Shown one piece after another: positions 1-20,000 of a stretch of DNA of 20,000 bases. The notes under the pieces were generated by a model. The model did not search any database. It worked only from the letters and a program-made list of their open reading frames with translations, and was not told where the DNA came from. The position numbers and the translations under genes were made by a program. How positions within the stretch are numbered: position 1 is the stretch's first letter; every line of letters starts with the position of its first letter. Source of the DNA: Psammoneis japonica (Eukaryota); assembly GCA_008632985.1 (NCBI GenBank), contig QPGO01000204.1, forward strand, positions 113,248 through 133,247, given 5' to 3'.

Positions 1-1050
1 TTGTCTGTTTGTGAGACAACATAGAGCGCACATGTGACGGTTGCGACCATGCGCGACATGTGGCTTGACAACTGCAGACATGTCTGTGGCCAGTCAAATG
101 CCAATCATTGGCATTTCCTGGAAAGATGTGGCTTGTCTGTCTGCCACAACAGCCCAATTTTGGCGGAAAGTGGCGGTTTGTTGCATGTGACAACCAAGGC
201 AAGCACAACAATTGGTGTTTGAAGGTCAATGCGTGTAGTTCACATGAAGGTCTAACAGCCCTGATGGGGGCTGGACACACTCATGTGTTTTTGGGGGTGC
301 TCAGAGGCTTCGCAAAACAACACGGGCAAAGCACAGGGAAATTTGAAAATCACGAGCCATTTAAAAGAACAGCAATGGGAGTGAAAATGCAGAATGAAGT
401 TGGCGTGCGGTTCAAGAAAAAAAGTCAAACACAAATCCCTCTGGCAATGGCATGAGACAAATGATGCGGTTGCAGCCCTGCGAACAGGGTGTGGCAGAAG
501 ATCATGCGATCAGTCGGTCAACGCGCCGCTTTGCAGCAATGCGCACCAGAGATAAAAGGTCAAGGAAAAATTGCACCAGAATGAGATCATTGCTTTCTTT
601 TGGAGAGGATTTAATGCACCCAAACCGCCACAGCAAGGACAATCACGTTAAGTGGAGAATTCAAAGTCAGTGCAACCTCTGAGAGAAAATCTTTGCCTCT
701 GAGGGAGAATCTTGTCTTCAACAAAGACTGACAGAATTTCACAATTGCATGGACCAGAACAACAGCATGCAGTTCACTGCTTGGAACAGTGATCTTGGTG
801 GGCCAGCAAGTGGAAAAGGGAATGTTCAGGACTTGCAAGGATGAAACAGGAAGTTGTGCTGATGTGACAAGAAGGTCGTTGGAAGAAATGTCATTCTCGT
901 GTAGAATTGACACTGAATCTTGCACAGAAAAGCCAATCCACGCAGCAAAAGGACGGTCGTCAGGTGATGCCAATGGTTCACCACAACAGGGACTGTGCTT
1001 TCACCACATGCACAAAGGAGACATGTTAGAAGCCATGCAAAGATAAAGTG

Positions 1051-1156
1051 GTGAGTTTGTGTTATGATTTTGCTCACAGTTGTTGACTCATCTTGAAATC
1101 TGTGTCTCAGATGTTCTCACTGCTTACACCCTCCCGTCTCTTTTGGCCTTCTACAG
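1051..1156 (+). other. Putative intron of a degraded host gene in the left flank
   Basis: GTGAGT donor, pyrimidine-rich 3' end, CTACAG acceptor, 106 bp. Confidence 0.45.
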
Positions 1157-1727
1157 CAACTGGCTTACAATCACCTGCCAGCATGGCAGTTTTTGGTGAT
1201 TGATGAACTGTGCAACAAACATTGGGTGTGTTGCCCTGACCATGGCAACGAACAAGGAGAGCCAGCATTCAATGTGTGGCTGGCTCGATCGAGCCGAGAG
1301 AAAGGATCAACATGTCCAATTGCAGGGTTCTGTTGTGGTGTGCTCAAAACGTCCCAACAAAAGATTCATTTTACAGTGTTGGATGGCCTTGGGAGTCGTT
1401 CATGCCGACAACCGCAATGGCTGCGAAACGATGGAGAGTGCCAGCTCTAGGAACAGCCAGGTCTGCTCTAGAGAGGCGCGCAGCCCATCATGCGGCAGTC
1501 TGTGTCCCGCGCCCCGGTGCGTGCTTGAAGACAATGGACAAAGCATGCCAACAACAACAAAAATGGCGAGAACGAAGAACCATCGATCATCGTTTGTGCG
1601 ATGGCGCACACGCACACACAAGAGCAGCAATTGCACCTGGAGAGCATCTAAAAACAACATTGGAAACATGTGGTAAGTTGACAACGCTCTGACTTTCAGT
1701 GACAATGCCATTTTTGAAGTTGCACCC

Positions 1728-1732
1728 CTCAA
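1728..1732 (+). repeat. Target-site duplication CTCAA (left copy; right copy 9153-9157)
   Basis: Identical 5-mer immediately flanking both LTR ends. Confidence 0.93.
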
Positions 1733-1987
1733 TGTCAATGTTCTGGGTTTCAATCGGAACTCGTGCGCGATCTCATGCGCGTCTCTGCTTCAAGACACAC
1801 ACCAAGACTGGCTCTTGTGTGCTGCAGTTTTTCATTCGATTTTCTCCTCACAATTTCAAGATGACAACAGTGCAACAACACCTTTTTTTTGGTCTCATCA
1901 CCTTGATCTGCCTCTGCCCAGCCAGATCAACCTCTCTTCGACCTCTTCACGTCGAAATCCCAATTGCTCCGTTCCTGAGTCATTGCA
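1733..1987 (+). repeat. 5' LTR (255 bp, contains no TpA)
   Basis: TGTCAA...TTGCA; aligns end to end with 8892-9152 (about 27 substitutions, one 7-bp and one 1-bp indel). Confidence 0.96.
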
Positions 1988-2000
1988 GGTTATGAGCCCA
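1988..2000 (+). other. Primer-binding site complementary to the anticodon arm of initiator tRNA-Met (half-tRNA priming)
   Basis: GGTTATGAGCCCA directly after the 5' LTR, complementary to GGGCUCAUAACC; same type as the Drosophila copia PBS GGTTATGGGCCCAG. Confidence 0.85.
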
Positions 2001-2115
2001 AGTGTCATGCTTGCGACTCTGCCGCATTGCGCCATCGTTTCCTCAAGAAGCGAATTCTCACCCCAGCACATCTAGGTGCATTTCCATGCACCACGTCGAC
2101 ACATTTCAGACGCTC

Positions 2116-2601
2116 ATGACAGAGACGCCATCTCTGGCAATGGACGAACTCATCACTCAACCAAACAACCTTCAGCTTCAGAGTGCTGAACTCCTGCGAC
2201 AAATCGAGGAAGAACGAGAATGGCCAGCCCACAATCCTCCTCCGACTGCCCCTTGAGAAGACACTTCAAGGGGAGAACTCACCACCCAAGACTTTCACGC
2301 AGGAGACCGCGTGTGCATCACGAACGAAATCCGTGGTGTCCGGTTCAGACAAGCAAACGTCCAAGACCGCCAGGCCACAGTCACTCAAATCACTGCCAAA
2401 CACGTCTTCGTACGCACGGACAACGGCAGCACAACAAATTGTCATCCAAAGAACCTTGTTTTCCTTGCCCAATCTCAAGATGACTACGAACGCTGCTCCA
2501 GTCTCTGCTCCCGACTCTGCCAAGACAGGGACGACTCCTCCTCCTTCGGTTGCGCAGACCAAGCTTGGCCAGGCCACTCCAACGACGACCGTCACGATTA
2601 A
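2116..2601 (+). pseudogene. Extra ORF upstream of gag (about 161 codons; N-terminal helix plus putative KOW/SH3-like beta domain), one in-frame TGA
   Basis: Track ORFs 2002-2256 and 2311-2601 share a frame and are split only by TGA 2254-2256 (likely CGA->TGA): MDELITQPNNLQLQSAELLRQIEEE...DFHAGDRVCITNEIRG...ATVTQITAKHVFVRTDNG...PKNL. Confidence 0.6.
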
Positions 2602-4027
2602 CGGCCGCACTGTTCAAGTTCGGAAACAGCCAGAAAACTCACTCTCAGATGACCTCAGCCCTGCACACGAAGAAGCAGAGGGAGACGCTTGCTCCAGACA
2701 AGCTCAACGACATCTTCTCTCATGCCACAGCACCCAAGCAGCAAACCAAATTTGACCTTCTTGACATCAACATCGCCGATCCTGACAAGTCAGAGGACAC
2801 CTGCGACTTCTCCATGTCGATCCAGACCATGCGCGCAAATCACATCAAGTGCAACATGGACGACATTTTCCAGGTCGTCGATCATGTCACCCTCAAGACT
2901 CGCAACTTGCACACCAACTGTTCGACTGTCACCGTTGCTGAAGTCACTGCGAGCAACAAGTGGCACTCCACCATGCTCGACAACCCGATGGCAAGTGGGC
3001 TTCTCAGAATCTGAACCTCACCTGTGATTGCGCCATCAAGCACGCTTCTCCACCTTTGACCAAGAAAGTCAACGAGACTTGCCTGCGTCATTCTAACGAA
3101 GAGCGCGGTGGACCGCTCCACTTCATCATCATGATGAAACTCCTTCAGAGCGACTCTGAAGAAGCCGCACTTTATCTCGTCAAGCTGCTCTCATTGATCA
3201 AAATCACCGATTTTGATGGCAAAGACATCAGCAAGGTTGTCTCGCTCATCCGTGGTGGTGTTTCTCGCCTCGAGAATCTCAAGGACCCCACCGGCAAGAC
3301 TTGCATCCCAACCGATTTTCTTGCTCAGCTGACAAAGGTCTTCCAGACTTCCAGCATGGCCAAATTCAACGGACTCTTTGATCATCTCTCCAAAAAGTCC
3401 AAACTCAAGAAGTTTGTTTCTGTGGCTGCTTCAACTTCTGCTTCTGTGCCTGTCGAATCGATTGCGAACCTCCTTGACATTGCCGAGCGCAAATGTCATG
3501 CTCTGTGCGCACGCGACAAGTGGTCCGGCGTGACCACCAAGGCCAATGCCTCCTCCTTTGTCGCGAGCATCCTCAGCAAGTGCTTTGGTTGCGGCACCGA
3601 AGGATGCTCTGTGGACAAGTGTCCCAAGCCTTGCGATGAAGCTCGCATCAAGGCCAACAAGAAGCTTTGTTTCGACACCAAGCACAACAAGTCCAAAGCC
3701 GCCTCACCGGGCAAGCCTGCCAAACAGCCCCCAGCGAAGTGGAAGCCTCCGACCGACGAGGAACGCAAGAACAAGAATCGCCGTGACATCGACGGCAAGG
3801 ATTGCTTTTGCCATTTCAAGACCAAACGTTGGAAGCCTGTCAGCGCCAACGTCGCTGCGCCGCCTCCTGCATCAGCTCCTCCAGCTCTTCCGACACCTCC
3901 TGCAGCTCCGACACCGGGTGCCGATGCTCGTGTCGCCGCCACTGAGGCAGCAAAGGAGCTCGCCATCGCTGACGCGACTCAGGCCATGCAAGACACCTTC
4001 CGTGGTCTCCTGGGCGCCTTCACTTGA
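2480..4027 (+). pseudogene. gag: gag, frameshifted
   Basis: ATG 2480 (MTTNAAP), frameshifts near 2660 and 2985; zinc-knuckle-like CFGCGTEGCSVDKC, basic/Pro-Ala-rich C-terminus, TGA 4025-4027; lies between PBS and pol. Confidence 0.8.
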
Positions 4028-4989
4028 CTTCCCGGGCGCGCCACTGCCCTGCTCCCCACTTGGCACACAGCCCACCCTCAACCACCCGATCCTGGAAGGG
4101 ACACCCAGGTTTGGCTCCATTGTTTGTGTCTGTGGTTTGTTGTTTCGTTTCTTCAAGAGGGTGATTTCGGACATTGCGTGCCATCTGACTGTTTTCAGCT
4201 GTTGTCTCCAGCAGTCATGGGATTGTCTTTCACATGCTGTTCTTTGCAAAGAAACCCACAATGCTGCACTTCTCCAAGCAACCTGCACACGCTGACTTCA
4301 TCTTCGAGCCAACCCCACAACCTGCTTCACCAACTCCAAATCGCCGACTGCCTCGAGCGAAGCAGCATCCACTGCATTTGTGTCATGCGGCGTCCTGTCC
4401 TGCATCCAACAAGGACTCCTCCAGTCTGTCTCTGGAAACCCTGGACTTGGACGTTCAAGCGCAGGACTCCAGCTCCTCCTCGAAATCTGGATCCCGAACC
4501 AGACAATCCCTCAAGACGTCTCACATTGCGCCATCGCCGACACTCAAGACGCTACAAGCGCCCAAGAGGGCACTGCTCCAATCGCTCCTGTCGGAACCCT
4601 CAATGTGAAAACCAGATCTTCATGCAAGGATTCAAACAACTGGTCCTCTGAACCAGATGACAATCCTGGCAACAAAGAATTCGCCCGCATTCGTCATCGA
4701 TTGCTCCATCAATCATGGATCATGCATGATCTACAATTTGGCATCAATCTGGACTCTTTTGTCAAGTCCATTGACCCACTGCGACAGCTCTGTTGCTGGA
4801 GAATCTTGACTGCTCCTGAAGTCCTCGAATCCATCAACAATCGCGATCCGTTTTGCTGTCTCACCACCACCTTGAGCAACAACGAGCGCCAAATTGTCAC
4901 CTCACCTCAGTTTGGTGGAATTGCCATGTTTTCAAAACAGGCAAAACACATTCAGACCGCTGGAACACCAAGGAAGAAAGAACATTTTC

Positions 4990-7900
4990 AAGCTTGCCTT
5001 TCTTCCACAAAAACGGACACTCCAATCATCCCAGATGCCGGCGCTTCATCCTCTTTAACCCCGCACATCTCACCAACTTCATTGGACCTCTTGAACCAGC
5101 TTCGCATGCCGAGATCAAGGGCCTTGCATCCAGTGCCCGCGTTGTTGGAAAAGGCACCGTCAAATGGGACATTGTCGACTGCTGGAACGTCACTCGCACC
5201 GTTCGGACAACTGCCTGTCACGTCCCTGACTGCTCAATCAGACTCTTCAGTCCTCAAACCCATTTCCAAGAGAATGAGAACAATGGATGCTGCCACATCT
5301 GTGGCAACAAGTCCATCCTCGAGCTGGCAAATGGCAACAAACTTGAGTTCCCCTGCAATGCTGGGAATGACTTGCCTCTCATGCTCACTGCTCATCCTTT
5401 CAAAGGCGGCATTGACTCCTGTCATGTTGCCCCACTTTTGGATTCTAACTGTTCATTTTTGTCAGTTGCTGCTCAGACAAATCAGAACATGACACCAGCT
5501 CAAAAGGAGCTCCTTCTCCTTCACCAGAAATTCGGACATGCTGGATTCCAGTGGATCCAATGCCTTTGCAAGATTCCCTGGAGTGAACAGCACAGCCAAG
5601 TGCTCAAGCCGCGAAACCCAACAACCAATTCATGCGATGCACCTCTCTGTGCAGCTTGCCAACTGGCAAAGCAACAACGACGCAATCCCGACCATCGCAG
5701 CACATCCAAACCTCAAGAAATGACCCTTCGTTCCAAGGATCTTTGCCCCGGACAAGGTGTCTCCATTGACCAGTGCATCAGCCATCTCCCTGGCTGCTTG
5801 CCCAAGTCAAAAGGAAAGGAAGCCCCAAGAACAAGTGCAATGGCGGCACACTTTTTGTCGACCATGCATCGGGCTACGTCCATGTCAACCATCAAGTTGG
5901 ACTCACTGCTGGCGAGATGCTTCATGCCAAGCAACGCTTTGAACAGCACTGCAACACCTTTGGAGTCCAGGTGCAGCACTGCCATGCTGACAACGCATCC
6001 TTCGGTTCCAAGGCATTCCAAAGTCACATCAATGACAACGGGCAGAAACTCACCTTTTCTGGCGTTGGAGCTCATCATCAAAATGGGGTTTCCGAGCGTG
6101 CACACAAACCATGACCTCATGGGGTCGAGCTCTGTTGCTCACGCCATCCTCATGTGGCCTGATCAAGCCAATCTCGAACTGTGGCCTTTCGCCATGGAAC
6201 ACGCCGCTTGCATTTGGAATCATTTGCCCCGTCAAGATTCCCGACTTGCTCCTGTCGAGATTTTCTCCGGCCAACGCTTGTGTGGGGTTGTCCCGCGTAC
6301 GTTCTCGACCCGAAACTACAAGACAACAAAAAGATCCCAAAGTGGAACGCACGATCTTGTCGTGGACAGCATCTGGGCGTCTCCTCAGATCACTCCATTG
6401 GCATCGGACGGATCCTGAATCCAAACACCGGTTTCACAAGTCCACAGCATCACGTGGTCCATGATGACCATTTTGCTTCAGTCCCAAATGCTGATTCCGG
6501 CGGCATCTTTCACAATGCTCCGTTTGACGCTGGATCCTTCTGACAATCCAAGACACGGCCAACCATGCCTCCACGATCATTGGTTGACTGCGCGCGAACG
6601 TGCGCATCGCAACTGCCACCGCCAGTGACAAAAAGCCAACAAATCCGCTGCCAAGAATGCCCAACCCGCCACCCAGGACATTTCTGACTCCTCTTCTGTC
6701 TCTGCTCCAGAGGAGTGACAACACCAAAACATCAAACTGACGATGATGCAGTGGACGTGGGAGCATTCACTCCAGAGGGAGCCAAACCTCCAGAGGAAGA
6801 GACAGACTCTCTGCCTCCACCGGAACCACCGGATGACAACGAGTTGTCTCTTGTGGATCATTTTGATCTGCCAGACGACGATGATGCCGTCGCAAGCAAC
6901 AACACGCCACAGCCATCACCTCCACTGCAAGATGTGCAACCACGACGACCACTCAGAGTGGCCGCACAAGTGGAAACCGTCACGTTTTATCAAATCGATG
7001 ATGGCTCACATGTCCTTCCCAAACACTGAGTCTCCACAAGCTCACAAGAACCCGAAACGGACGGTCAAGGCTGAATCCTCTGAACCAGCAATTCTTGATG
7101 TCCTTGCAATGGGAAAAGATCACTCACACTCTCCAATCTCGTGACCTCAGTGCAATGTTCAACATTCTGCGTGCCAATGCCGACATTGACCACAACACAG
7201 TTGAAGAATTTCACCCTTTGGCCTTCGCAGCAAAGGCAAACTCGGGGCTGACAACCCTGCTTGGGACCAAGCAATGAACGGACCAGACCGTGCAGCCCAT
7301 TTGAAGGCTTGCGACGTCAAACTGGATGCTTTGGCAAAAGGCAAAGACGCTTGGGATGTTGTGGATTGTGAAGATTGGATGAACGTCCTGCCATCTGCTT
7401 GGGCGTTCAAATGCAAACGATTTCCAGACAGTCGCATCAAGAAACACAAGGCTCGATTTTGTGTTCATGGCAACAAGCACTCGAAGGCATCGACCACTTT
7501 GACACCTTTGCTCCAGTGGCAAATTGGACAACTGTGCACCTCATGCTCATTCTGTCTCAAATCTTGCAACTCTCTACAAAACAGGTCGACTGTGTTACGG
7601 CTTTCGTACATGCTCCGATCGACAAGGACCCCGACTTCGACAAGTTGTCGCCAGAGGAACAAGCTCGTTCCGGCGTCTACGTTGAAATGCCTCGTGGCTT
7701 TGCGGAACCTGGGAAAGTCCCAAAGCTCAAGAAATCCGTCTGTGGACTCAAACAAGCACCGCGAAACTTCTTTTTGCACCTCAAGTCCAAACTAGAAGGT
7801 GCCGGATTCACCGCTCAAGACGACGTCGATCCGTGCCTCTTCATCTCGGACAAAGTCATCTGTCCAGTCTACGTCGATGACACCCTCTTCTTCTCTCCCA

Positions 7901-8864
7901 AGCAAGAGCACATCGATGAAGTCATTGAAAAGATTCGCCTTTCTGGACTCGCCATCGAAGAAGAAGACTCAGTCGCGGGATTTCTCGGCGTGCACGTCAA
8001 GCGCGACACCGATTCAGGTGCTGTCAAGCTCACCCAGAGCGGCCTGGCCCGCCGTGTCGTGGAAGCCCTGAACATGCCTCATCTCCCAAAGAAATGTGCA
8101 CCAGCAACTGCCACTCCACTCATTCAAGATGCCGACGGCGACCCTCCTGCAGGCGCCTGTGACCATGCAAGCGTCATTGGCATGTTGCAGCATCTCGCCG
8201 GCCACTCTCGGCCGGACATCTCGTGTGCAGTGAGTTCCGCTGCCCGCTTTGTTCACTCACCTGAACGCTCGCACGAAATTGCTTTAGAGCGGATTGGACA
8301 ATGTCTCAAAGGGACCCTCGACGAAGGTCTCATTTTGCGCCCAACCGGAAATCTCGATGTCGACGCACACGTCGATTCTGACTTCGCCGGTCTGTGGCCA
8401 CACGAAGACAAGCAAGACCCTGCGTGTGTCAAGAGCCGCTCATTTGTGTCTCCAACTGTCCCATCATCTGGACAAGTAAACTCGCTCCCGAAATCGCACT
8501 CTTGACGATGGAAGCCAAGCACAACGCTCTGTCCTTCTGTGTGAAGAGCGTTCTTCCGTTTCAACGCGCCGTGTGCTGCATCTCTGAGTGCACCGGCATT
8601 GGCACCTGCATGTCTGCCACCTTCAAGACTGCTGTCTGGGAGGACAATGCCGGAGCTCTGACTCTCGCGAACATGGAACCTGGTCGGATCACTCCGCGAT
8701 CCAAGCACTGTGCTGTCAAGTGCCGCTGGCTCCGGTCCCATCTCAAGCCCAACGATGTCACTGTCCAGAAGATCTCTACCGATCTGCAAAGGGCAGATTG
8801 CCTAACCAAAGGGCTTACAAGGGACGCATTCGAGTCCATTCGCAAACTACTCTGTGGATGGTAA
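4990..8864 (+). pseudogene. pol: pol (protease, integrase, reverse transcriptase, RNase H), multiply frameshifted
   Basis: PR IIPDAGAS (~5025-5050); HHCC LHQKFGH...CAACQLAK; IN core SIDQ/ADN/HHQNGVSERA, WGCPAYVL; RT KARFCV, FAPV, GLKQAPR, VYVDD (7867-7881), SRPDI; RH DSDFAG, WEDNAGA, QRADCLTK; stop 8862-8864. Confidence 0.95.
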
Positions 8865-8882
8865 TTGATCTCTCACTCGTTC

Positions 8883-8891
8883 GAGAGGGAG
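8883..8891 (+). other. Polypurine tract
   Basis: GAGAGGGAG immediately before the 3' LTR. Confidence 0.88.
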
Positions 8892-9152
8892 TGTCAACAT
8901 TCCGGGTTTCAATCCGAACTCGTGCGCGATCTCGCGCGTATCTCTACTTCAAGATACACATCAAGACTATCTCTTACGTACTACAGTTTTTCATTCGATT
9001 TTCTCCTCACAATTCACAATTTCAAGATAATAACAGTGTAACAACACCTTTTTTCAGTCTTATCACCTTGATCTGCCTCTACCTAGCCAGATCAACCTCT
9101 CTTCGACCTCTTCACGTCGAAATCCCAATTGCTCCGTTCCTGAGTTATCGCA
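8892..9152 (+). repeat. 3' LTR (261 bp, 14 TpA)
   Basis: TGTCAA...TCGCA, preceded by the PPT and followed by TSD CTCAA. Confidence 0.96.
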
Positions 9153-9859
9153 CTCAACATGCTTTCATCGGTTGCTGCTGCAGACGAATTCTGGCGACGC
9201 TTCCAAAGGTCCTGCATCGAATTTGCGTCTCCTCTACCAGCTGCCACAGTCAATCACGGGTATGTTTTGCAGTTCCAATGGAGAATTCGCTGCTGCTTGT
9301 CAAGTAGTAACGCCGTCACCAACATTGGTACCGTCGGCGGCAACCAGCAGTAGCCTGTATGGCTCTGCTTGTCTTGTCATGCGGGTTTATGCCATTGCAA
9401 CGAGTTTGTTCATGGTCTTTACTACAATGGTTTGAACCATTGCTAACGAGCGGAGCAGGATTGGGGAAAAACTAATGGTCAATTTCTCAAAGTATTGAAA
9501 GGGGACGTGAAGAGGGATCGAGACGCAGACACATGAACAGGCGGTTTCAGAGCAGTTAAATTTGTTTGTTCGATTGCAATGGCGGCCAAAAATACACGAG
9601 GCCCGAAAGGAACGTTCAAAGACGAAATCGAGGGGAAAAAGGGTGCCGTAGTAGCCTCGATGATGCACGAATGTCTACCACAAACAGCTGGACTCGAAGG
9701 CAGCATGGTTAAGTATCATATATGGAGAAAATTGTGTCATGCTTCTCTACTGGCACCGGTAATTTGGATAATGCTCAATCCGAGTAAGAAAATGGCGATG
9801 AATTCGACGAGAGCTTGCCAAGAATATTCCCCTCTCCAAGTTTGAATGGAAGTTACGTT

Positions 9860-10708
9860 ATGTGGCGAAGAAGGGAACTGCTTTCGGTCGACTCTTTTGC
9901 TTTACTTTAAGATACCGTACGACACCAGTGACGAGCATTGTCTGAATCGAATGGTGATGATGTAATGTACGGGTGTTTCTCGCACGTCCCGTGGCGAGAA
10001 TAATCCATACTTAAACTGTAAGCTTGGTCTCAAATATGGGAATCTCAGTTTGGGTATGAGAAAGTTTGCAAAATGCAGGCCTCAGCGAGAAAAGGGAAAA
10101 GGCTGGGGGCTCGTTGCCGTCAACGGTGCAGAATGGGGTGAGCTCATTCAGGAGTACACTGGTTAAGTTATCGACGAAGAAAGAACGAAGAAACGCCTTG
10201 AAGCATGGGCTAGAGACCGTCCAAACGACGCCATTTTCTACGTGATGTATCTTGACACCGGCTGGTACATTGATGCGAGCAATGAGGCCAACAGAGTTGA
10301 TTCGTTAATCATTCGTTTGATCCAACCTGCAAACTGGTCCGAGTCAATGTTGGAGGGTACTTGCACGTTGCCATCAAATCCTGTATGAACATTGTTCCTG
10401 GAGAATTTCTGATTTACGACTACCAGTTTGATACAAGGGATATTTACAAGTTTCTCTGTAGATGCGGTGCTGCTAAACGTCAAGGCACCTTGGTGGGAAA
10501 GGAGTTCCAAGATTGTGCCGAGCAGAAAACAAAGGGACAGGAATGAGGAGGTGCGAGGGTACGCTTGTACCGCGACAAGACATTTCTTGAGGACCTTAAG
10601 AGACACGCAGCACACAGACGTTTGCATGTTTCAGATCTTGTGCCGTGTACTACCAAGACGAGACCGTTGCGAGTGGACCGCAAGATTGCGATCGAGAGTT
10701 TGCAGTGA
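9860..10708 (+). pseudogene. AWS-SET-postSET histone lysine methyltransferase (Set2/NSD/ASH1-like, H3K36 class) pseudogene
   Basis: CLNRMVMM*CT...GKGWGLVA...ELIQEYTG*VID...FYVMYLDTGWYIDA...FVNHSFDPTC...GEFLIYDYQF...FLCRCGAAK; TAA at 9963-9965 and 10164-10166, frameshift ~10295, TGA 10544-10546. Confidence 0.9.
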
Positions 10709-11008
10709 AAAGCAGGCTGTTCTTGTGTCGTAATGTCGTTCTGGGGGCTGACTTCTCGGCAAGGTGCTTATCACTGGAGAAAGCTTGCAAAAAGTCTTGA
10801 TATACATGAAACAATGAAGCGATAGGCATCTTTTCTCTCTTCGAAAGGGCGTCTTAGTGGAGGTTCTTGTGAACACTCCCTGTACCGAGTGTTTTGTACA
10901 TTCAGAAAAGTTGAATGTGCTCTGTATCCTTATCTTCTACATACTGGTGGCGCGATTGGAGGTGACGCTGCTTCTTGGGATGGTACAGTAGTGATAGATA
11001 CCTGGAGT

Positions 11009-11228
11009 GGCGGCGGCGGTTGCGGCGTACCATAACGAAGAAGAAGTTGGGATGGACCTGCTGCTGCTAACCTTGGACCTTCTGCTGCTAACCTTGGACC
11101 TACGAAAGTAATATAGTAATTTGTGGTGATGCTTGGCGGCGGCGGCGGAGCATAACGAAGAAGAGGAATTTGGGATGGACCTGCTGCTGCTAACTTTGGA
11201 TCTACGAAAGTAATTGGTGGTGATGCTT
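11009..11228. repeat. Imperfect tandem repeat (about 126 + 94 bp units, internal 21-bp duplication); also in copy 2 (~14494-14713)
   Basis: GGCGGCGGCGG...CATAACGAAGAAGA...GGGATGGACCTGCTGCTGCTAAC...TACGAAAGTAAT...GTGGTGATGCTT occurs twice. Confidence 0.85.
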
Positions 11229-11730
11229 ATGGGCCACGAAGCATTGCAGAGCATAATAGACCTGGACCAAGAATACACGGTGACGACACGTACGGCCCTG
11301 CTTCTCTAGCATTCTAGGAACCCCTGTGGATACCCGAGATGGTCTGGACACGTATTGAGCATGGGCCTGGACCTTACGCACGCCGAAGTGTTGGGAACAC
11401 GTACGGACCCGGGCGTGGAATGAGTGCAGATCGATTTCGCCTCCTAGACTAAGTGAGGTGATTCGTACGGACCATCACAGCCACACGCACCTCGTGTCCT
11501 ACCACACACTCATACGGTTTGGTGTAAGGTATGCTCTCTAGAACAAAAATCCCGAGCTTACTGCCGCTGCTCGCTCTTGCGATCGCAGCTTCTCTTGCAT
11601 TATGTGGTACTCGTACAGAAGGGCGAGTAGCGATACCACAGAATTCAAAATCACCTTGCTACCTGTCTCTATTTTAGCAAATTACAAAAATAGTATAAGT
11701 ACAAGTGCTACAAGTGCCGCACATTTTGAC

Positions 11731-11850
11731 TTTCCCGAATATTGCATGTCGTATTTCCTGAATAATGCATGTCGTATTTTCCGAATACTACATCTTGCAT
11801 TCCCAAAGGTTTTTCGTTGCATTCCCCGAACATTGCACGGTGCATTCCCC
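11731..11850. repeat. Degenerate ~23-bp tandem array (about 5 units); also at ~15224-15343
   Basis: TTTCCCGAATATTGCATGTCGTA / TTTCCTGAATAATGCATGTCGTA / TTTTCCGAATACTACATCTTGCA / TTCCCAAAGGTTTTTCGTTGCA / TTCCCCGAACATTGCACGGTGCA. Confidence 0.75.
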
Positions 11851-13474
11851 TTTCCCAAACACATCACATGGTCATTGTTGCTCATGATGCCCGAGCCTCC
11901 CTGGCTGCCACCCATGACATGGACAACATTGTTGAGCACCTGCAGGTAAAGTGCATCCGTCGCCTTGGTCCTGTCGCAACCACCTGATCGACTCAGAATG
12001 CCAAGAAATTATAGAGGAGGGGTTGTTCAAGGAATTAGAGAGCCCGTCTATGTAACAAAGGAAGCTGCTATGGGCAATACAAGGAAACAAAAGAGCAATT
12101 CAAGGACGTGAGGACCCGCAAGCATGTGGACTCAGACTTCTGTGAATCTTGCACCTGTAGCCAAATCGATGCAAAGCACAGTTGCACCCCTCGTTTGTAA
12201 CTCAAAGGGGCTTTATCGAGTCCCTCATACCATCATAATCGAAATGTAACTATGACCAGTAGAGAACAGATGTTGATGCGAGTGTTTTCTCGGCATGCTG
12301 GGGTTTGCCAGTTCAATCTGTCGTGGCATGTTGCCTCTCCTCGAGGTCGTGGCATGTAGCTCCTAGTCGCAATTAACCATTAACAGCACTAGACTATATT
12401 ACTTTGTCAAATTACTCATTGATAAACCCATTCTCACCATTGCAGCAATGATTTCTAGCGCTTGGAGCCTTGCAGAGAGAACCACCTGCACACACCAAGT
12501 TCCGGATCAATCCTGCTTTCGGGCCTCAATGTCACTAATTGTGTTTGTTGACTTTTGACATTGCTTATATTCAATGCACTCCTATGTGTTAGATGCTTCC
12601 TGGACTATTGTAAAGTATTCAATCTATATTGATAACGAACTACGCATCTTTCCGTGCATGCAAAACGATGGAAACAGGTGTCCGACAAAAGGGTTCCGGC
12701 CAGCTATCGTCATTTACCTGTCGCTGGCAGCATTTTCTACAGTTTGATCCCGATCTTAGAAACATTGACCGTTTAAAAACGCCTCTTTGCAGACAATATG
12801 AACAATTTAAGCCGTGCTCCGAATCGATTTGGTTGGAGCTAGCACGTTCGTGGGATCCGAGGTGGAACTGCTTGAGGCTCCTCAGAAACTCGCATGGACT
12901 TTTGACACCTGATAACCACCCAGGATCGTCTCACTTAGTCATATAGGGAGGCGTTTGAGCCATTAATTGAAACTTTTGGATGGTTTAACACAGGCATTGA
13001 GTCGATTTGATTGTCGCAAATGATCGTGACAAGCAAGAATTGCCGCGCTTGCTTTTGTTTTTGACACGGAAAACACTGCCAAAGAAAGAGCTTATCCCTT
13101 TAAAAGTCATCTTTATCGAGTATATCGTCCATGACATGGGTACCTACATAATGCATTACATTTTAGACCTCCAAAACATTTGCTGTCGTGCCGGATGCAG
13201 AGGAAACAAAGAAATTGAGTGAAAAGTTCAGATGATGATCAAAGGCATTGAATGAAGATAACATGCTTTATTACCCATACCTTATGATCATAATGAGGTT
13301 TAAACATACTCTCCAGGTGATTCTTACACTTGGTGTTAAATATTGCCGCCGCCGCAACCGATCCCATGGTCGACTTCAGTTGCGTCGCGTGTCGCGTTTT
13401 GGAAAGAAGAAGTTGATTTTATGGGTTATGAGCGTTTTAGTCGAAACGCGCGGACGTGGCCCAAAAGCATCGTG

Positions 13475-13529
13475 ATTGTCCCATAATTGTCCCATAATTG
13501 TCCCATAATTGTCCCACAATTGTCCCACA
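13475..13529. repeat. 11-bp minisatellite x5
   Basis: (ATTGTCCCATA)3(ATTGTCCCACA)2. Confidence 0.95.
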
Positions 13530-13665
13530 CCCTCCATGCCGAATGCCGACACGCCGACACCGAGATAAAGAGTAATTTGAGAAATGCCCAAGTCACGACC
13601 ACAACGAGGATTCAAAGGTCAGGTGAGCCAATCATACCACTCAACCCTTGTTCCTGCCAACAAAA

Positions 13666-14194
13666 AAAGAACGAAGAAACGCCTTGAAGCATGGGCTAGA
13701 GACCGTCCAAACGACGCCATTTTCTACGTGATGTATCTTGACACCGGCTGGTACATTGATGCGAGCAATGAGGCCAACAGAGTTGATTCGTTAATCATTC
13801 GTTTGATCCAACCTGCAAACTGGTCCGAGTCAATGTTGGAGGGTACTTGCACGTTGCCATCAAATCCTGTATGAACATTGTTCCTGGAGAATTTCTGATT
13901 TACGACTACCAGTTTGATACAAGGGATATTTACAAGTTTCTCTGTAGATGCGGTGCTGCTAAACGTCAAGGCACCTTGGTGGGAAAGGAGTTCCAAGATT
14001 GTGCCGAGCAGAAAACAAAGGGACAGGAACGAGGAGGTGCGAGGGTACGCTTGTACCGCGACAAGACATTTCTTGAGGACCTTAAGAGACACGCAGCACA
14101 CAGACATTTGCATGTTTCAGATCTTGTGCCGTGTACTACCAAGACGAGACCGTTGCGAGTGGACCGCAAGATTGCGATCGAGAGTTTGCAGTGA
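13666..14194 (+). pseudogene. Duplicated C-terminal fragment of the SET-postSET pseudogene
   Basis: FYVMYLDTGWYIDA..., GEFLIYDYQF...CRCGA; same frameshift as copy 1, but CGA where copy 1 has TGA. Confidence 0.85.
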
Positions 14195-15357
14195 AAAGCA
14201 GGCTGTTCTTGTGTCGTAATGTCGTTCTGGGGGCTGACTTCTCGGCAAGGTGCTTATCACTGGAGAAAGCTTGCAAAAAGTCTTGATATACATGAAACAA
14301 TGAAGCGATAGGCATCTTTTCTCTCTTCGAAAGGCGTCTTAGTGGAGGTTCTTGTGAACACTCCCTGTACCGAGTGTTTTGTACATTCAGAAAAGTTGAA
14401 TGTGCTCTGTATCCTTATCTTCTACATACTGGTGGCGCGATTGGAGGTGACGCTGCTTCTTGGGATGGTACAGTAGTGATAGATACCTGGAGTGGCGGCG
14501 GCGGTTGCGGCGTACCATAACGAAGAAGAAGTTGGGATGGACCTGCTGCTGCTAACCTTGGACCTTCTGCTGCTAACCTTGGACCTACGAAAGTAATATA
14601 GTAATTTGTGGTGATGCTTGGCGGCGGCGGCGGAGCATAACGAAGAAGAGGAATTTGGGATGGACCTGCTGCTGCTAACTTTGGATCTACGAAAGTAATT
14701 GGTGGTGATGCTTATGGGCCACGAAGCATTGCAGAGCATAATAGACCTGGACCAAGAATACACGGTGACGACACGTACGGCCCTGCTTCTCTAGCATTCT
14801 AGGAACCCCTGTGGATACCCGAGATGGTCTGGACACGTATTGAGCATGGGCCTGGACCTTACGCACACCGAAATGTTGGGAACACGTAGGGCCCTACGGA
14901 CCCGGGCGTGGAATGAGTGCAGATCGATTTCGCCTCCTAGACTAAGTGAGGTGATTCGTACGGACCATCACAGCCACACGCACCTCGTGTCCTACCACAC
15001 ACTCATACGGTTTGGTGTAAGGTATGCTCTCTAGAACAAAAATCCCGAGCTTACTGCCACTGCTCGCTCTTGCGATCGCAGCTTCTCTTGCATTATGTGG
15101 TACTCGTACAGAAGGGCGAGTAGCGATACCACAGAATTCAAAATCACCTTGCTACCTGTCTCTATTTTAGCAAATTACAAAAATAGTATAAGTACAAGTG
15201 CTACAAGTGCCGCACATTTTGACTTTCCCGAATATTGCATGTCGTATTTCCTGAATAATGCATGTCGTATTTTCCGAATACTACATCTTGCATTCCCAAA
15301 GGTTTTTCGTTGCATTCCCCGAACATTGCACGGTGCATTCCCCTTTCCCAAACACAT
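13666..15357 (+). repeat. Direct segmental duplication, copy 2 (1692 bp)
   Basis: Matches 10180-11864 (offset 3486 to 3493). Confidence 0.97.
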
Positions 15358-15383
15358 TGAGGACGAGTCGTATCGATTCGAAA

Positions 15384-16552
15384 TCAAGGCAAAGGGAGTC
15401 CGGCCTTCTTGCGTTGGGAACGAGTCATACGGGCCGGAGTCTCGGCAGCCTTCTTGCGCGGGGTCTCGAACGCAGTATCACCTGCAACAGTGACCTTCTT
15501 CTCGGGGGTGACATCGGTGCTGGGCTCTGGGGTAGTAGCGCCATTCGCCACATTTTCCTTGGCCGCGGTGGCGCCGCTGTCCTTCTTGCTCCAGCTCATA
15601 CGACGAGGCCACCAAGAGCCGCCATTGGCAGTTCCGTCCTTGTTGGCAACGTTGGTTCCTTCCGAGACGGCAGCGACGGTAGACGTCTTCTCCTTCTTTT
15701 TCTCCTTCTTATCTACTTTGAGTTGAAGAAGCCCGCTGGCAACAGAGAAACAGAATCGACGTTGTGAGCACAACAAAGGACAATGGACTGTGGAGGCTGG
15801 CATGGCACTTACAGCTCTTCAGTGATCACCGCCTCTTTCTTTTTTGTCTGTAGACTTTCCATCCGAGCTTCAATGAGATCTTTCTCTGCGGCCTTTTCAT
15901 CCCTGATGAGGCTGACATGCAAGTCGGTCCCCTTCTGGGCTTGTGCCGCAAAGACAGACGCAGAGTCGAGGTGCTTCTGCTCATTTTCCACGAGCTTCTC
16001 GCGCAGCTCTTTGTTTTCCTTCGCATTTTGCACGGAGACTTTAGCCATCTCTCGCATCAAATCATTGTTGGCCTTGAGCTCTGGTTTCGCGTCTTTCCGA
16101 CGACCGACCGCGTTGAGGTTGGCCTCGATCAAGAGAGCTTCCGTCTGCTTCTGCAACTCAGCCTCCGTGGCAAGTCTATCCTTCTTGAGCTTCATTTTCG
16201 CAAGCTTGGTGTCGGTGTCGTCGGAGGCTGCACTCTCCGGGGTACCATCAGCATCATGGTTGGTGGCAGCTATGGCGGCCGCCTTGGGCCCCGGCGTGAC
16301 GACCTTGGCGGGAAGAGAAGGCATGCACTTGTCACGAGCAACCTTCCAGCGGGGCTTGCTCTTGGATAGCCATCTTCCCACCTTCGCTTCCTCGCCCGGA
16401 AATTCATCGTGGAGCTCAGGAATCATCGCATACAATTCCGACGCTGGGAAGCCGGGCACGAAGATGTAATCCAACTCTCCACGAATGGCGGGATCGACCA
16501 CTAACCTGCGCATCGTAGGGTTCTTAGAGTATTTACAGGATGAAGTACTCAT
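15384..16552 (-). CDS. Two-exon hypothetical protein, about 363 aa, central coiled coil and Lys-rich C-terminus; join(16552-15813, 15735-15384)
   Basis: ATG 16552 (MSTSSCKY); 77-bp intron 15812-15736 with GTAAGT donor and CCAG acceptor joins ORFs 15809-16648 and 15384-15803 in frame (EEL|GLLQLKV); 1092 nt, no internal stop. Confidence 0.82.
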
Positions 16553-16699
16553 CTTGGAGATAGATACAGTGATCGTAGTCGTAGGAACCGAAAGAGCAGG
16601 GACCGAAAGAGCAACAACGTTTGATACGCCGCAACAATGACAGGTCATCGAGGACTCGTTTTCGATCGTTCCATCTCCCGAGCGCCGGCCTCGGCGACG

Positions 16700-16930
16700 T
16701 TATTTTTGAACAGAATATGAAGAAATATTAATGAAGTGAGTATAATGATATGGAAATCAAGCTGGCCGGATGATTTATATATTAGTCCCTTTCGGTTGTA
16801 TATGGATTTTGAATTATTTGTAAACCTTCATGGTACAAGGATTGAAAAATAACATTATCTATGGACTCTAAGGTAGTTTAATTATGAATATTGCAGTAAA
16901 GCTTCCTATAAGAAATCACGTAGGTAGACA
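16700..16930. promoter_or_regulatory. AT-rich intergenic region between divergent genes (possible bidirectional promoter)
   Basis: AT/TA-rich stretch between ATG 16552 (-) and ATG 17042 (+); position-based inference only. Confidence 0.35.
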
Positions 16931-17041
16931 AGCTACTCAGATACACGCATCGATCGAGAACGGCACGACTATCAACGGAAAAAACAAATATTGGAACCTG
17001 CGCGCGACACGCCCCATGCATCCCATCCGAATCCATTCACA

Positions 17042-17570
17042 ATGTCACTTCTGGAAGTGCTGCGACGACGGAAAATGACGACGACACCCGGCGCTGTGCC
17101 TCCTCAGATCCTATCTGCGTTGGAGGAGCTTCGCACACCCTCGAGCTACTTCAATTCAGAAGAAGCAGCAGCCGATCTTGTCTTGTTCTGCGCATGTGAG
17201 GACGAAATCTCTCAGTCGCTCACCGAAGCCGGATTTCTTGAGACAATCATTGGTGCAATGGATCACGATGGGCAAAGCAACTCCTTTTGCTTGTGTGTCA
17301 TTCATGTGCTCAGCAAATTTGTGCAGTCAAAGGAGGACAATGCAGAAGAAATCCTTGGAAAGAAAGGCGGTCTCAAAAGAACAGTTTGTCTGATGGACAC
17401 ATTTGAGGAGAGAGTCTGACAAAGACATTCAAATGCTGGGAGTTTTGTGCCTCTTTCATCTCACAAAAGAAACCAGAGGAAAAAGCATGGTTGAAATGGT
17501 GGCAAGCATCATGGAGTGCATTGCCACAGCCACAGAAACTCACAAAGACCCTGTCTTGATTGCTGGTTTT
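17042..17570 (+). pseudogene. Armadillo/ARM-like helical-repeat protein, decaying toward its 3' end
   Basis: MSLLEVLRRRK...EAGFLETIIGAMDH...VIHVLSKFV...GGLKRTVCLMDTF, frameshift ~17410, then SDKDIQMLGVLCLFHL; ARM-like GG/AG-hydrophobic helix pattern. Confidence 0.55.
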
Positions 17571-20000
17571 GGTCTTTGTTTTTGTTTTTGTTTCATGATC
17601 ATTGCTTCAATGCTTCGGTGCAAAAGACATCTTGAGTTTTGCCTCTTGAGCCACCCACTTGATGTTGAGGTTTCTGCAAAGAACTGCTTGTGCTGTGGCT
17701 GGTTGAAAGGTTGCCCACACTCTTGTGGCTCACAGCTTGAGGCATGATGGAGTCAGCAGTTCTCTGTGCTTGACCTTTGCCCATCAGACTCGCTGTCACA
17801 ATGTGCCTTCTCCTGTTGACACCATTGTCTCCATCAAAGTCCAGAGTCCAGACTGCCCCAGCCATTGGCAAAACAGGAGCTTCTGTGGAACTTTTCTGCC
17901 TGCTTCACTGCCACAAAGCAGCTCTTGGCAACAATGCCACCCCCACATCATGCCTGGCTGCAGCAAAGGACTGTCTTCCAAGCTGCCATCTGAGATGCCC
18001 AACTTGGGTTTGTGCTGAACTCTTCACTCTTCCCGTCACAAAAACAAGGTGTTTCTGGTTCTGATGGCAATGTGCTGGAGCCTTCCTGCACAGCTTCCCA
18101 GGTGCACACCAGTGCCTCCAGAGTGCCAGCCCAGCCACAACAGCTGCACCATCTTTGCTGGGGCTTTGCCAGCAGGTCGCTGTGCCAAGGCTGCCACAGT
18201 CTTGGACAACAGCAAGTCAAAGCCGATGCAGCCATGACAGTGCTTTGTGGTGCCATCAGCATGGAGTGGTGTGAGCTTGCTGGACTGCCCGACCCTGCAT
18301 GCCACATCCCCTTGCAGTTGAGTGCCAACCTGAGAGACACAGTCATGAAGAATCCCTGCCCAAGCCAAAGCTGGAGCTGGCATGTGAGCCCCTGTTGGCA
18401 CCCCATGCTGCACTGCTGCAAAATGGCACAAGCTTCCTGAAGCTTGCTTGTGTTGGTGCTGCTGCCATGGGCCAACTTGTCAACACACCACTCTGCCCCC
18501 CAACACAAGCAAGATGGTGCGCACTTTTCTGCAGCTCTGGCTGGGATGACAGATGTGCACTCCAAGCAAACTGCAGTGCATGCTCCCAAACAACAGCCCG
18601 TTGAAGGTGCTTCTCATGTCTCTGGCTGATGCCAGCCTGTGGTTGGCTGTCAAAAAAGCAGGGGTCAAGAAGGACAGATCATCAGCTGCAGGAGAGCATG
18701 AGTTCCCTGCCATGTGCTCAGCAACAAGGCACTGGCACATTGGAAGCACCACAGTTGTGTGGGTGTGGGTGGGGGGGCATGACACCACTTGCAAGTGTGG
18801 CTGCTCAGGTCAAGTGACCCACCTGAGACATGTGCGCATCCACAAACGGCTGGGAAATGCTGCTGGCAAGAAGGGCCTCTTGGAGGTGCAGCCACCCTTG
18901 GTCACAAAGAAGCTTGCAAAACTCTGGCTCTGGCTGTGTGTTTAAAAAGTGAAAAAGCTTTGAGTGAAGTTTGGTTTGAGAGTCATCAAGCATGCAAATG
19001 ACAGCTGCTTCCTGCACAGCAGACTGCTGCCTCTCATTTTTTCTCAAGAGCTTGCTCAGAATGCAGGGTCCAAAGCAAGCAGTCAAGCTGGCAAGTGTTT
19101 TCTTCTCCCCAGCCCTGTGCAAATGCAATGGCACAACTTGAACAGCCAAACTGTGCTGCCAGAGGAGCACACGTGGAGTTGGCAGCTGGCCTGGGGCTGC
19201 CAAGCTGGCAAGGTGCTCCGCTTGGTGGCGCACAGCACACTCAGTTGCTCTCACATTGTCACCCTGCAGCTGCACCATGCACACCCACCCTTTGAACCAG
19301 CAGCAACCACCCCAGTCAGTGAAGAAGATGCCAACAAATCTCTGGCCCTGCTTCTGTGGTTGATTTTGTGTGCGTTCTCAATGGCTTCAATCCCCTCCTT
19401 TTTCCTTCTTCCTTTTTCCCTTTGGTCTGGCCAGGAACATGAAAAAATTGCCAACAAAATTTGAACCATTCACAATTTTTGGCATGCAAACAAATGTGTC
19501 TTCAGAGCTGATGGTGACAAGAGGTGCTCACAATGAGACCCAATGGAGCAAGACAGATGCTCTGGTGCAAAAGCTTAAAAGATGATGGATCATTTCATGC
19601 AAGGCAAAAAGTCATCAGACATTGCAAGATGTTTGCAGCAGTGCTTGTGGTGGCAACTTTTGGTGGGTGGGTGTGCTTTGATGCTGCTTTTCAGTCTGGG
19701 GTTGGCTCTTGTCATCCTCTGGTCCAGCAGCTGCAGCTGCACATTGTCCCACACACAAGAAAGTCTTTCATGCTGAAGTGCTGCCAGCACAAGAAGCAGG
19801 TCTGACCGTCTGCAAGCACACAAAAAATCAAGCCCAGCTGCTGGCTGCCCGCCCCTCTCATCATCCAAGCAGACAAGGCATGAGGCTCTGTGTTTGGCAT
19901 CTCTTTTTGCCACCTTTCAAGAAGCCAGTGCCAGCATTGCACACATGTTGGAACACTCCGTTGGTTCTTTCAGGCACCAAGAAATGCCCATCATCTCCAG
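17150..20000. other. TpA- and CpG-depleted, TG/CA-rich hypermutated domain; original identity unrecognisable beyond ~17570
   Basis: Only 2 TA dinucleotides (18943, 19576) in about 2850 bp; under 20 CG in 17400-20000 by manual count. Confidence 0.9.

Follow-up and report, generated by a model that had tools for sequence, protein, structure and literature searches.

The window analysed here, a 20,000-nucleotide stretch of contig QPGO01000204.1 (assembly GCA_008632985.1, positions 113,248 to 133,247 of the forward strand), carries a Ty1/copia retrotransposon, most of which has been almost emptied of the dinucleotide 5'-TA-3' together with its left flank, and a second TA-free domain at the right-hand end (Table 1). 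A repeat search returned the two long terminal repeats (LTRs, 1733-1987 and 8892-9152) as three collinear direct-repeat blocks with 86-93% identity, and the TG...CA ends, the shared CTCAA flanks, a sequence resembling a primer-binding site (PBS) and a purine tract identify the pair as one insertion. The element belongs to the Ty1/copia group, as evidenced by this LTR structure, by an RVT_2 domain at ~7480-8104 that scored above the cut-off in a Pfam scan (79.3 bits) and by weaker domains in the expected order, namely gag_pre-integrs at ~5486-5675 (20.7 bits, below cut-off) and SH3_retrovirus at ~6280-6472 (25.9 bits, just under cut-off). Alignment of a 1627-aa relative onto the element by tblastn gave nine segments in three frames, indicating that the reading frames are broken. 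No Rfam family reached its gathering threshold anywhere in the window.

We consider it likely, with a probability of about 80%, that a delimited domain of this chromosome underwent conversion of TpA to TpG or CpA in place and after the element had inserted, by a process of the same kind as the TpA-specific hypermutation of integrated viral DNA reported in the main text of a preprint on Bigelowiella natans (Mettrop et al. 2026, bioRxiv 10.64898/2026.01.13.699255), of which this locus would be a second and independent record. The polarity of the change, its dinucleotide specificity, strand symmetry, saturation, domain limits and post-insertion timing are all displayed by this locus itself.

Alignment of the two LTRs gave 27 substitutions and two indels, one of 7 bp (TCACAAT, 9007-9013) and the other of 1 bp in a T run. 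The 254 dinucleotides of the 5' LTR include no TA, whereas the 3' LTR has 14, and these 14 sites account for 15 of the 27 substitutions. The 5' LTR reads TG at seven of them (3' LTR positions 8945, 8968, 8975, 8979, 8982, 9028 and 9080), CA at six (8955, 9031, 9039, 9061, 9084 and 9146) and CG at one (8939-8940, facing 1780-1781). Of the 15 CpG found in the 3' LTR, five are TG or CA in the 5' LTR, and the reverse change does not occur; two sites pair CA with TG (8898-99 and 9055-56), the three remaining substitutions lie at 1756, 1802 and 1811, and A>G changes outside a TA or CpG context amount to zero. An earlier note on this DNA (the original prediction) had listed the same counts for the TA, CpG, ambiguous and other sites, all of which were reproduced. 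At the TA frequency of the normal part of the window (4.6%), 11.7 TA would be expected in the 5' LTR (Poisson 8e-6), and the 14:0 asymmetry between the LTRs gave p = 1.2e-4 in a sign test. Because TA is palindromic, a single hit abolishes the target on the two strands at once; this accounts for the single change at 13 of the 14 sites. Situated just beyond the edge of the domain, the 3' LTR has kept the ancestral TAs, and the LTR pair therefore records the process, while the identical CTCAA duplication on both sides implies a single insertion and a change that followed it. An LTR pattern scan of metagenome contigs for other copies with which to polarise the LTR sites gave 0 matches.

Two sequences alone cannot be polarised, and fungal repeat-induced point mutation (RIP) makes TA from CA, so that a RIP-like C>T process might have given TA to the 3' LTR and left the 5' LTR as the original. 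The direction of change was read from the coding region, on which 71 full-length relatives were placed by tblastn and the columns with at least 70% agreement among relatives were retained. This yielded 608 conserved codon columns, 488 of which are identical in the window and 120 of which differ. At the 19 conserved Tyr columns the window encodes Cys in nine, His in seven and Tyr in three, and the other residue classes were retained in 55-100% of their columns, most of them above 80% (Lys 30/30, Trp 19/21, Pro 43/47 and Gly 46/53, for example). The changes TAY>TGY and TAY>CAY, where Y is a pyrimidine, are the two products of TA>TG and TA>CA. As controls, 79 related copia loci were fetched from metagenome contigs, with 78 used for the all-column tests. 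At seven conserved Tyr positions the 79 loci carry Y 497 times, F 46, C 3, N 3, V 1 and H 0, and over all conserved Tyr columns the 78 loci carry Y 1031 times, C 6 and H 10 out of 1201. The Tyr>Cys/His replacement is thus seen in 16/19 columns here and in 16/1201 in the controls (Fisher p 5e-25). The observed/expected ratio (o/e) of TA in the 79 related loci has a median of 0.62 and a range of 0.21-0.90, compared with 0.06 for this element, and the copia family is not natively TA-poor.

An ancestral TG/CA state, the outcome that would have counted against the original prediction, is contradicted for the element body by these conserved Tyr columns and, judging from its position in the same TA-free tract, would by extension be contradicted for the 5' LTR. 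The earlier claim that TA was lost from the 5' LTR rather than gained by the 3' LTR was borne out by this result and by a region-wide loss that includes the flank. A RIP-like origin of the TA sites in the 3' LTR is highly improbable in view of these codons and of the depleted flank; in addition, the TA o/e of the 3' LTR (0.66) is ordinary, like that of its surroundings and of the 79 related loci, and a 1.7-kb repeat pair with 99% identity in the same window has no TA versus TG/CA difference at all.

One of the 79 related loci (L024:1-1693) deserves separate mention. Its TA o/e is 0.21, falling to 0.12 in the first kb, with a CA/TG value of 1.47; it has Cys or His at three of nine conserved Tyr columns, and five of its 30 differing columns are of the TA type. 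This locus may represent partial hypermutation of a copy carried by some environmental organism.

The 120 differing columns of the window were classed by the single change that restores the consensus residue. A>G after T accounts for 18 columns and T>C before A for 10, compared with four for A>G after C, G or A and three for T>C before T or G; 16 columns are CpG-type, 10 require a different single transition (G>A or C>T, not at CpG), 33 require transversions and 26 require two or more changes, many of the transversion and multi-change columns being located at frame-shifted ends of alignment segments. The ratio of TA-type to other A:T>G:C changes is 28:7 here and 100:301 in the 78 control loci (p = 1e-10). 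Second-position A>G was found in 9/19 TAY codons and in 2/147 CAN, AAN and GAN codons (p = 2e-8). The outcomes TG and CA are balanced at 9:7 in the Tyr codons and 7:6 at the LTR sites, and runs tests for strand tracts found no clustering of TG versus CA (z = 0.48 and -0.85). The action proposed in the original prediction, specific to TA, exerted on both strands and saturating, is upheld in each of these respects, the last by TA o/e values of 0.00 in the 5' LTR and 0.07 in the internal region. Two other explanations were considered and rejected, namely biased gene conversion and RNA-level selection against UpA; neither is TA-exclusive, an o/e of 0 is out of reach for both, and the LTR asymmetry is explained by neither.

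The same results bear on editing before integration, whether by ADAR-type A-to-I conversion on RNA or through deaminated reverse-transcription intermediates. ADAR favours U on the 5' side, and examples of edited retroelements are known; the ADAR preference is also mentioned in the Discussion of the B. natans preprint (10.64898/2026.01.13.699255). The two LTRs share one template, however, and should match after such editing, yet they differ at 14 of 14 TA sites. Both strands are changed equally, the TA-poor state continues into the flank past the target-site duplication and stops inside the element, and the T-before-A rule, with 9/19 against 2/147 codons, is far stricter than a preference. We regard pre-integration editing as scarcely credible. 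More generally, APOBEC3/ADAR hypermutation is similar to the present case in that context-dependent transitions of the deaminase type inactivate retroelements; it differs in acting on RNA or single-stranded cDNA, with strand bias and with LTRs that remain alike, whereas here the LTRs differ, both strands are changed and the flank is included.

In 1733-8740, 23 TA survive. Eight of these abut a CpG as TACG or CGTA (2411, 2485, 5875, 6298, 7596, 7607, 7678 and 7870), compared with a background of 9.8% CpG-abutting TA in the related loci (p = 0.001) and 12.7% in the normal part of the window (p = 0.008). All three surviving conserved Tyr codons are TAC followed by G and belong to these CpG-abutting survivors. 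A neighbouring methyl-CpG could protect TA, although few sites are involved and conversion did reach two TA sites of the LTR that are flanked by CpG.

The loss of TA follows the chromosome rather than the element. The TA o/e is 0.16 in 1-1732, 0.00 in the 5' LTR and 0.07 in the internal region, rises to 0.66 in the 3' LTR, stays at 0.5-1.0 across ~9000-17000 and drops to 0.00-0.04 in 17251-20000. Observed and expected TA numbers are 19 and 80.0 for the left flank, 23 and 313.0 for 1988-8760, and 2 and 131.7 for the right-hand domain; the internal region has 28 TA in 6904 bp, five of them within its last 115 bp. CA and TG have o/e values of 1.3-2.4 wherever TA is missing. In 500-bp windows over 1-8500 and 17001-20000, TA o/e is 0.00-0.28 and CA/TG o/e mostly 1.3-2.4, with values under 1.52 in some windows of the element body. 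Stop codons reflect the same loss. In the six frames of 1-8740 there are 381 TGA, 28 TAA and 26 TAG, compared with 266 TGA, 174 TAA and 150 TAG in the normal part.

Conversion is proven as far as the Tyr codon at 8709-8711 and probable at 8721, and the first retained TA stands at 8777. The edge of the domain can thus be no more than about 70 bp wide and is located within the element, 115-130 bp short of the 3' LTR. At the second edge, TA occurs at 17112 and 17147 and next only at 18943. The mutated unit is thus a stretch of chromosome that includes the left flank and ends inside the element, not the transposon. The original prediction had seen the transposon as the target; the copia element is indeed heavily converted, but the domain takes in the left flank and stops short of the element's end.

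Table 1. Positions in the 20,000-nucleotide window of the retrotransposon, its flanks and the TA-poor and TA-normal domains.
Feature	Position	Strand	Remarks
Left flank of the insertion	1..1732	.	TA-poor, CA/TG excess
Target-site duplication CTCAA, left copy	1728..1732	+	identical to 9153-9157
5' LTR	1733..1987	+	255 bp, TG...CA termini, 0 TA, 11 CpG
Ty1/copia internal region	1988..8891	+	frames broken; order gag, integrase, reverse transcriptase (RT)/RNase H
PBS-like sequence GGTTATGAGCCC	starts 1988		directly 3' of the 5' LTR
Right limit of the TA-free domain	8711..8777	.	last proven conversion to first retained TA
Polypurine tract GAGAGGGAG	8883..8891	+	adjoins the 3' LTR
3' LTR	8892..9152	+	261 bp, 14 TA, 15 CpG, inside the TA-normal domain
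Target-site duplication CTCAA, right copy	9153..9157	+	
TA-normal domain	8777..17149	.	387 TA (4.6% of dinucleotides), internal control
Second hypermutated domain	17150..20000	.	2 TA in 2.85 kb

Neither of the two other TA-poor parts could be assigned by its genes, as none of the 26 open reading frames (ORFs) in the left flank and right-hand domain gave a match at or above any Pfam cut-off. The left flank has a CpG o/e of 0.55, and the copia element probably landed here in a repeat of high copy number. Part 1-1334 of the flank has a summed contig depth in the public sequencing run X1 (see below) far above that of the remainder. From ~17250 the right-hand domain has CpG o/e values of 0.04-0.14, with CA/TG at 1.7-2.4. 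An ORF at 16928-17416 begins in normal DNA and crosses into this domain; it has two weak relatives, one of which is ZER1/ARM-like. The target of the right-hand domain may therefore not be a mobile element, given that an ARM-like ORF enters it.

The TA-normal domain between the two edges contains direct repeats of 1.7 kb (10174-11864 and 13660-15357) that are 99.06% identical and carry the C-terminal exon of a SET-domain gene, as identified by Pfam. Their seven mismatches are all transitions, five at CpG and none of TA versus TG/CA. Duplication is thus not the trigger, since linked repeats with 99% identity show no TA loss. The comparison with RIP in ascomycete fungi is instructive here. Both are in-place, saturating and dinucleotide-specific transition processes that disable mobile DNA, with fairly sharp edges and spillover. 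RIP, unlike the process at this locus, changes C:G to T:A mostly as CpA>TpA, makes TA, lowers GC and is triggered by duplication, whereas here TA is destroyed and GC rises. The earlier description of the process as the opposite of fungal RIP is therefore justified by the reversed polarity, the depletion of TA and the unaffected repeats. Among the 33 ORFs of the normal part, only the SET-domain exon was recognised, and no relative was found for the ORF at 15809-16699. The segment 12007-13340, between the repeat copies, has a very high summed contig depth and a normal TA content.

In order to compare the TA-free sequence with reads, Logan contigs (31-mer assemblies) of the public runs X1, X2 and X3, all from one sample, were aligned to the window. 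Five X1 contigs listed in TA-free DNA (2193-2680, 2733-3286, 5655-6202, 17265-19280 and 19265-19998) showed 0 substitutions over 4.3 kb, with 1, 0, 3, 0 and 0 gaps, respectively. Runs X2 and X3 have no contig cover over most of the TA-free parts and carry no weight either way. Support in reads, which the original prediction had named as a check, is at hand for 4.3 kb of the TA-free sequence, but the 5' LTR lies outside the pieces listed. X1 contigs differ from the window by paired adjacent CA>TG changes at 206-207, 7548-7549 and 12675-12676; this is the pattern expected if one ancestral TA (or CG) was resolved differently between copies or haplotypes. The X1 word depth is 34-57 for the listed TA-free contigs and 81-84 for two TA-normal contigs (11036-11672 and 15765-16247), so that the mutated sequence may be on one haplotype only, word depth not being equal to copy number.

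An artefact, in which bases were miscalled at modified positions of unpolishable repeats or the assembly switched haplotype or copy at ~8760 and 17150, has some points in its favour. Both edges are very sharp, the three runs come from one sample with the library of X1 unrecorded, and the difference in word depth (34-57 versus 81-84) fits a single haplotype, although depth is not copy number. It is nevertheless very unlikely. The X1 contigs repeat 4.3 kb of TA-free DNA without substitution, unlike noisy long reads; the CTCAA duplication joins left and right into one insertion; Tyr>Cys/His and the CpG decay have the form of ordinary heritable mutation; a metagenome contig (L024) has a milder signature; and the signature in B. 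natans came, according to the main text of the preprint, from Illumina data of mutation-accumulation lines (10.64898/2026.01.13.699255). A haplotype switch would in any case alter the boundary only and not the process.

In the proposed sequence of events, after insertion of the copia element a DNA-level process acting in place would have turned nearly every 5'-TA-3' of the domain into TG or CA, by one A:T>G:C transition per site with either strand equally likely to be hit. The first domain would run from window position 1 or earlier to ~8760 and the second from 17150. The same domain also shows decay of CpG to TpG or CpA and would be, or have been, cytosine-methylated, silenced chromatin; the CpG losses (5/15 in the LTR and 16 codon-level events) suggest that it is methylated heterochromatin. 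Deamination of methyl-CpG is thus a second component at this locus (5/15 LTR CpG, 16 codon changes and o/e 0.04-0.14 in 17251-20000), but it leaves TA alone and the main signal is unexplained by it.

As to the enzyme, an ADAT2/3 (Tad2/Tad3)-type deaminase that converts adenine to hypoxanthine in DNA is a tentative candidate, to which we would give somewhat less than even odds; its preference for U or T before A would give the TA rule. Fungal mRNA editing by Tad2-Tad3-Ame1 is described as having a strong preference for T before the edited A (PMC13431901), and the need of Tad2-Tad3 (ADAT2/3) for T or U at the 5' side of the edited A resembles the rule at this locus (PMC13431901). The known substrates of this enzyme are, in contrast, RNA. 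Activity of ADAT2/3 on DNA is attributed to the amphioxus and trypanosome enzymes only, as cited in the main text of the B. natans preprint (10.64898/2026.01.13.699255).

The spectrum can be read equally well as the change of T before A to C, and a second chemistry starts from thymine. Here the T of TpA would be oxidised by an enzyme of the TET/JBP type to 5-hydroxymethyl- or 5-formyluracil, a base that mispairs with G, so that T>C results on one strand and is read as A>G on the other. Mutagenicity in the direction T>C is a property of 5-formyluracil, and some protists are rich in 5-hydroxymethyluracil, with a TpA preference reported in dinoflagellates. We consider the thymine route improbable, as the 5'-T preference documented for a real enzyme family favours the deaminase model. 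The process may serve a defensive purpose.

How does this locus compare with B. natans? The original prediction had treated the process as undescribed, and this has been overtaken by the 2026 preprint, the main text of which already reports TpA-only A:T>G:C hypermutation and proposes an ADAT-like deaminase, as the original prediction had also done (10.64898/2026.01.13.699255). A literature search for the signature, including diatoms, returned that preprint as the single description. According to its main text (10.64898/2026.01.13.699255), 231 of 302 nuclear mutations in mutation-accumulation lines of B. natans fell in giant-virus and virophage regions, and 230 of these 231 were A>G or T>C, every one at TpA. 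The B. natans genome was found to hold 124 clusters in which TpA is depleted while CpA and TpG are enriched, its low-TpA coding sequences were enriched in RT and DDE Pfam domains, an ADAT2-like protein was proposed as the enzyme, and the rate was given as ~1e-7 to 1e-6 per site per generation and episodic (10.64898/2026.01.13.699255). The main text mentions neither LTR, copia, retrotransposon nor diatom, and its supplementary tables may list such elements.

[quoted passage not shown] They differ in several respects. The targets described in B. natans are inserts of a giant virus (186 kb) and a virophage (25 kb) in which many TpA are left (Rho 0.45; 3.3% and 9.2%), and the rate was measured in lines, whereas the present locus holds a historical, saturated record (o/e 0.00-0.07) in an LTR retrotransposon and its flank. 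It also offers an internal LTR clock, an edge of at most about 70 bp and a clear accompanying decay of CpG. What is new here, relative to that main text, is the LTR retrotransposon as a target, the saturation, the sharpness of the edge and the coupling with CpG decay.

Several observations weigh against conversion in place by such a process, or narrow what can be claimed for it. The TA>CG site of the LTR requires either a second hit in a CA or TG context or the opposite history. Lys>Glu was found in 0/30 conserved Lys codons, despite the T|AAR junctions to be expected among them, a marginal shortfall with a chance of ~3% by estimate. None of the 16 contig pieces listed spans the LTRs, 8700-8900 or either boundary, and a haplotype switch or gene-conversion tract at ~8760 may be the cause of the sharpness of the edge. 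The library type of X1 is unrecorded and the window may itself have been assembled from X1, so that the support from its contigs is not fully independent. The left flank and the right-hand domain are without recognisable mobile-element genes, and a defence against foreign DNA is unsupported for them. Finally, adenine deamination and thymine-directed chemistry are indistinguishable from mutation data alone.

The protein relatives of the element may hint at its host. Copia-type relatives comprised 1749 of similar length and 592 longer ones, none above 71% identity. Among the 240 relatives listed, the only eukaryote names were those of the pennate diatoms Seminavis robusta, Cylindrotheca closterium and Nitzschia inconspicua; one further row was an MMETSP transcript and one was labelled as a bacterial metagenome-assembled genome, and no relative named Bigelowiella was among the 240. 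The host is possibly a lineage other than B. natans, given that diatom elements are the closest of the relatives with a name.

A targeted mutator of the A:T>G:C type in the nuclear DNA of eukaryotes is a very new subject, represented by one 2026 preprint in the literature searched, and this window provides a natural experiment on it, with the two LTRs of one insertion on opposite sides of a domain edge. The LTR pair shows that the change came after integration, ran to completion, was strict for TA, affected both strands, was limited by position and coincided with CpG decay. As a more doubtful extension, the process could be part of a wider protist genome defence that is not confined to one chlorarachniophyte, is directed at a chromatin domain and not at repeats as such, has edges defined to within a nucleosome, works together with cytosine methylation and is hindered beside intact CpG, with a host that is maybe a diatom. 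If such a wider defence were true, the enzyme, a candidate natural DNA adenine deaminase of possible interest for base editing, could be named by comparing genomes that carry the signature with genomes that lack it. If the host is a diatom or belongs to another lineage than B. natans, the system would be widespread among marine algae, and TA-free, stop-codon-poor 'orphan' regions in their genomes would have to be interpreted as mobile or viral DNA that has been mutated.

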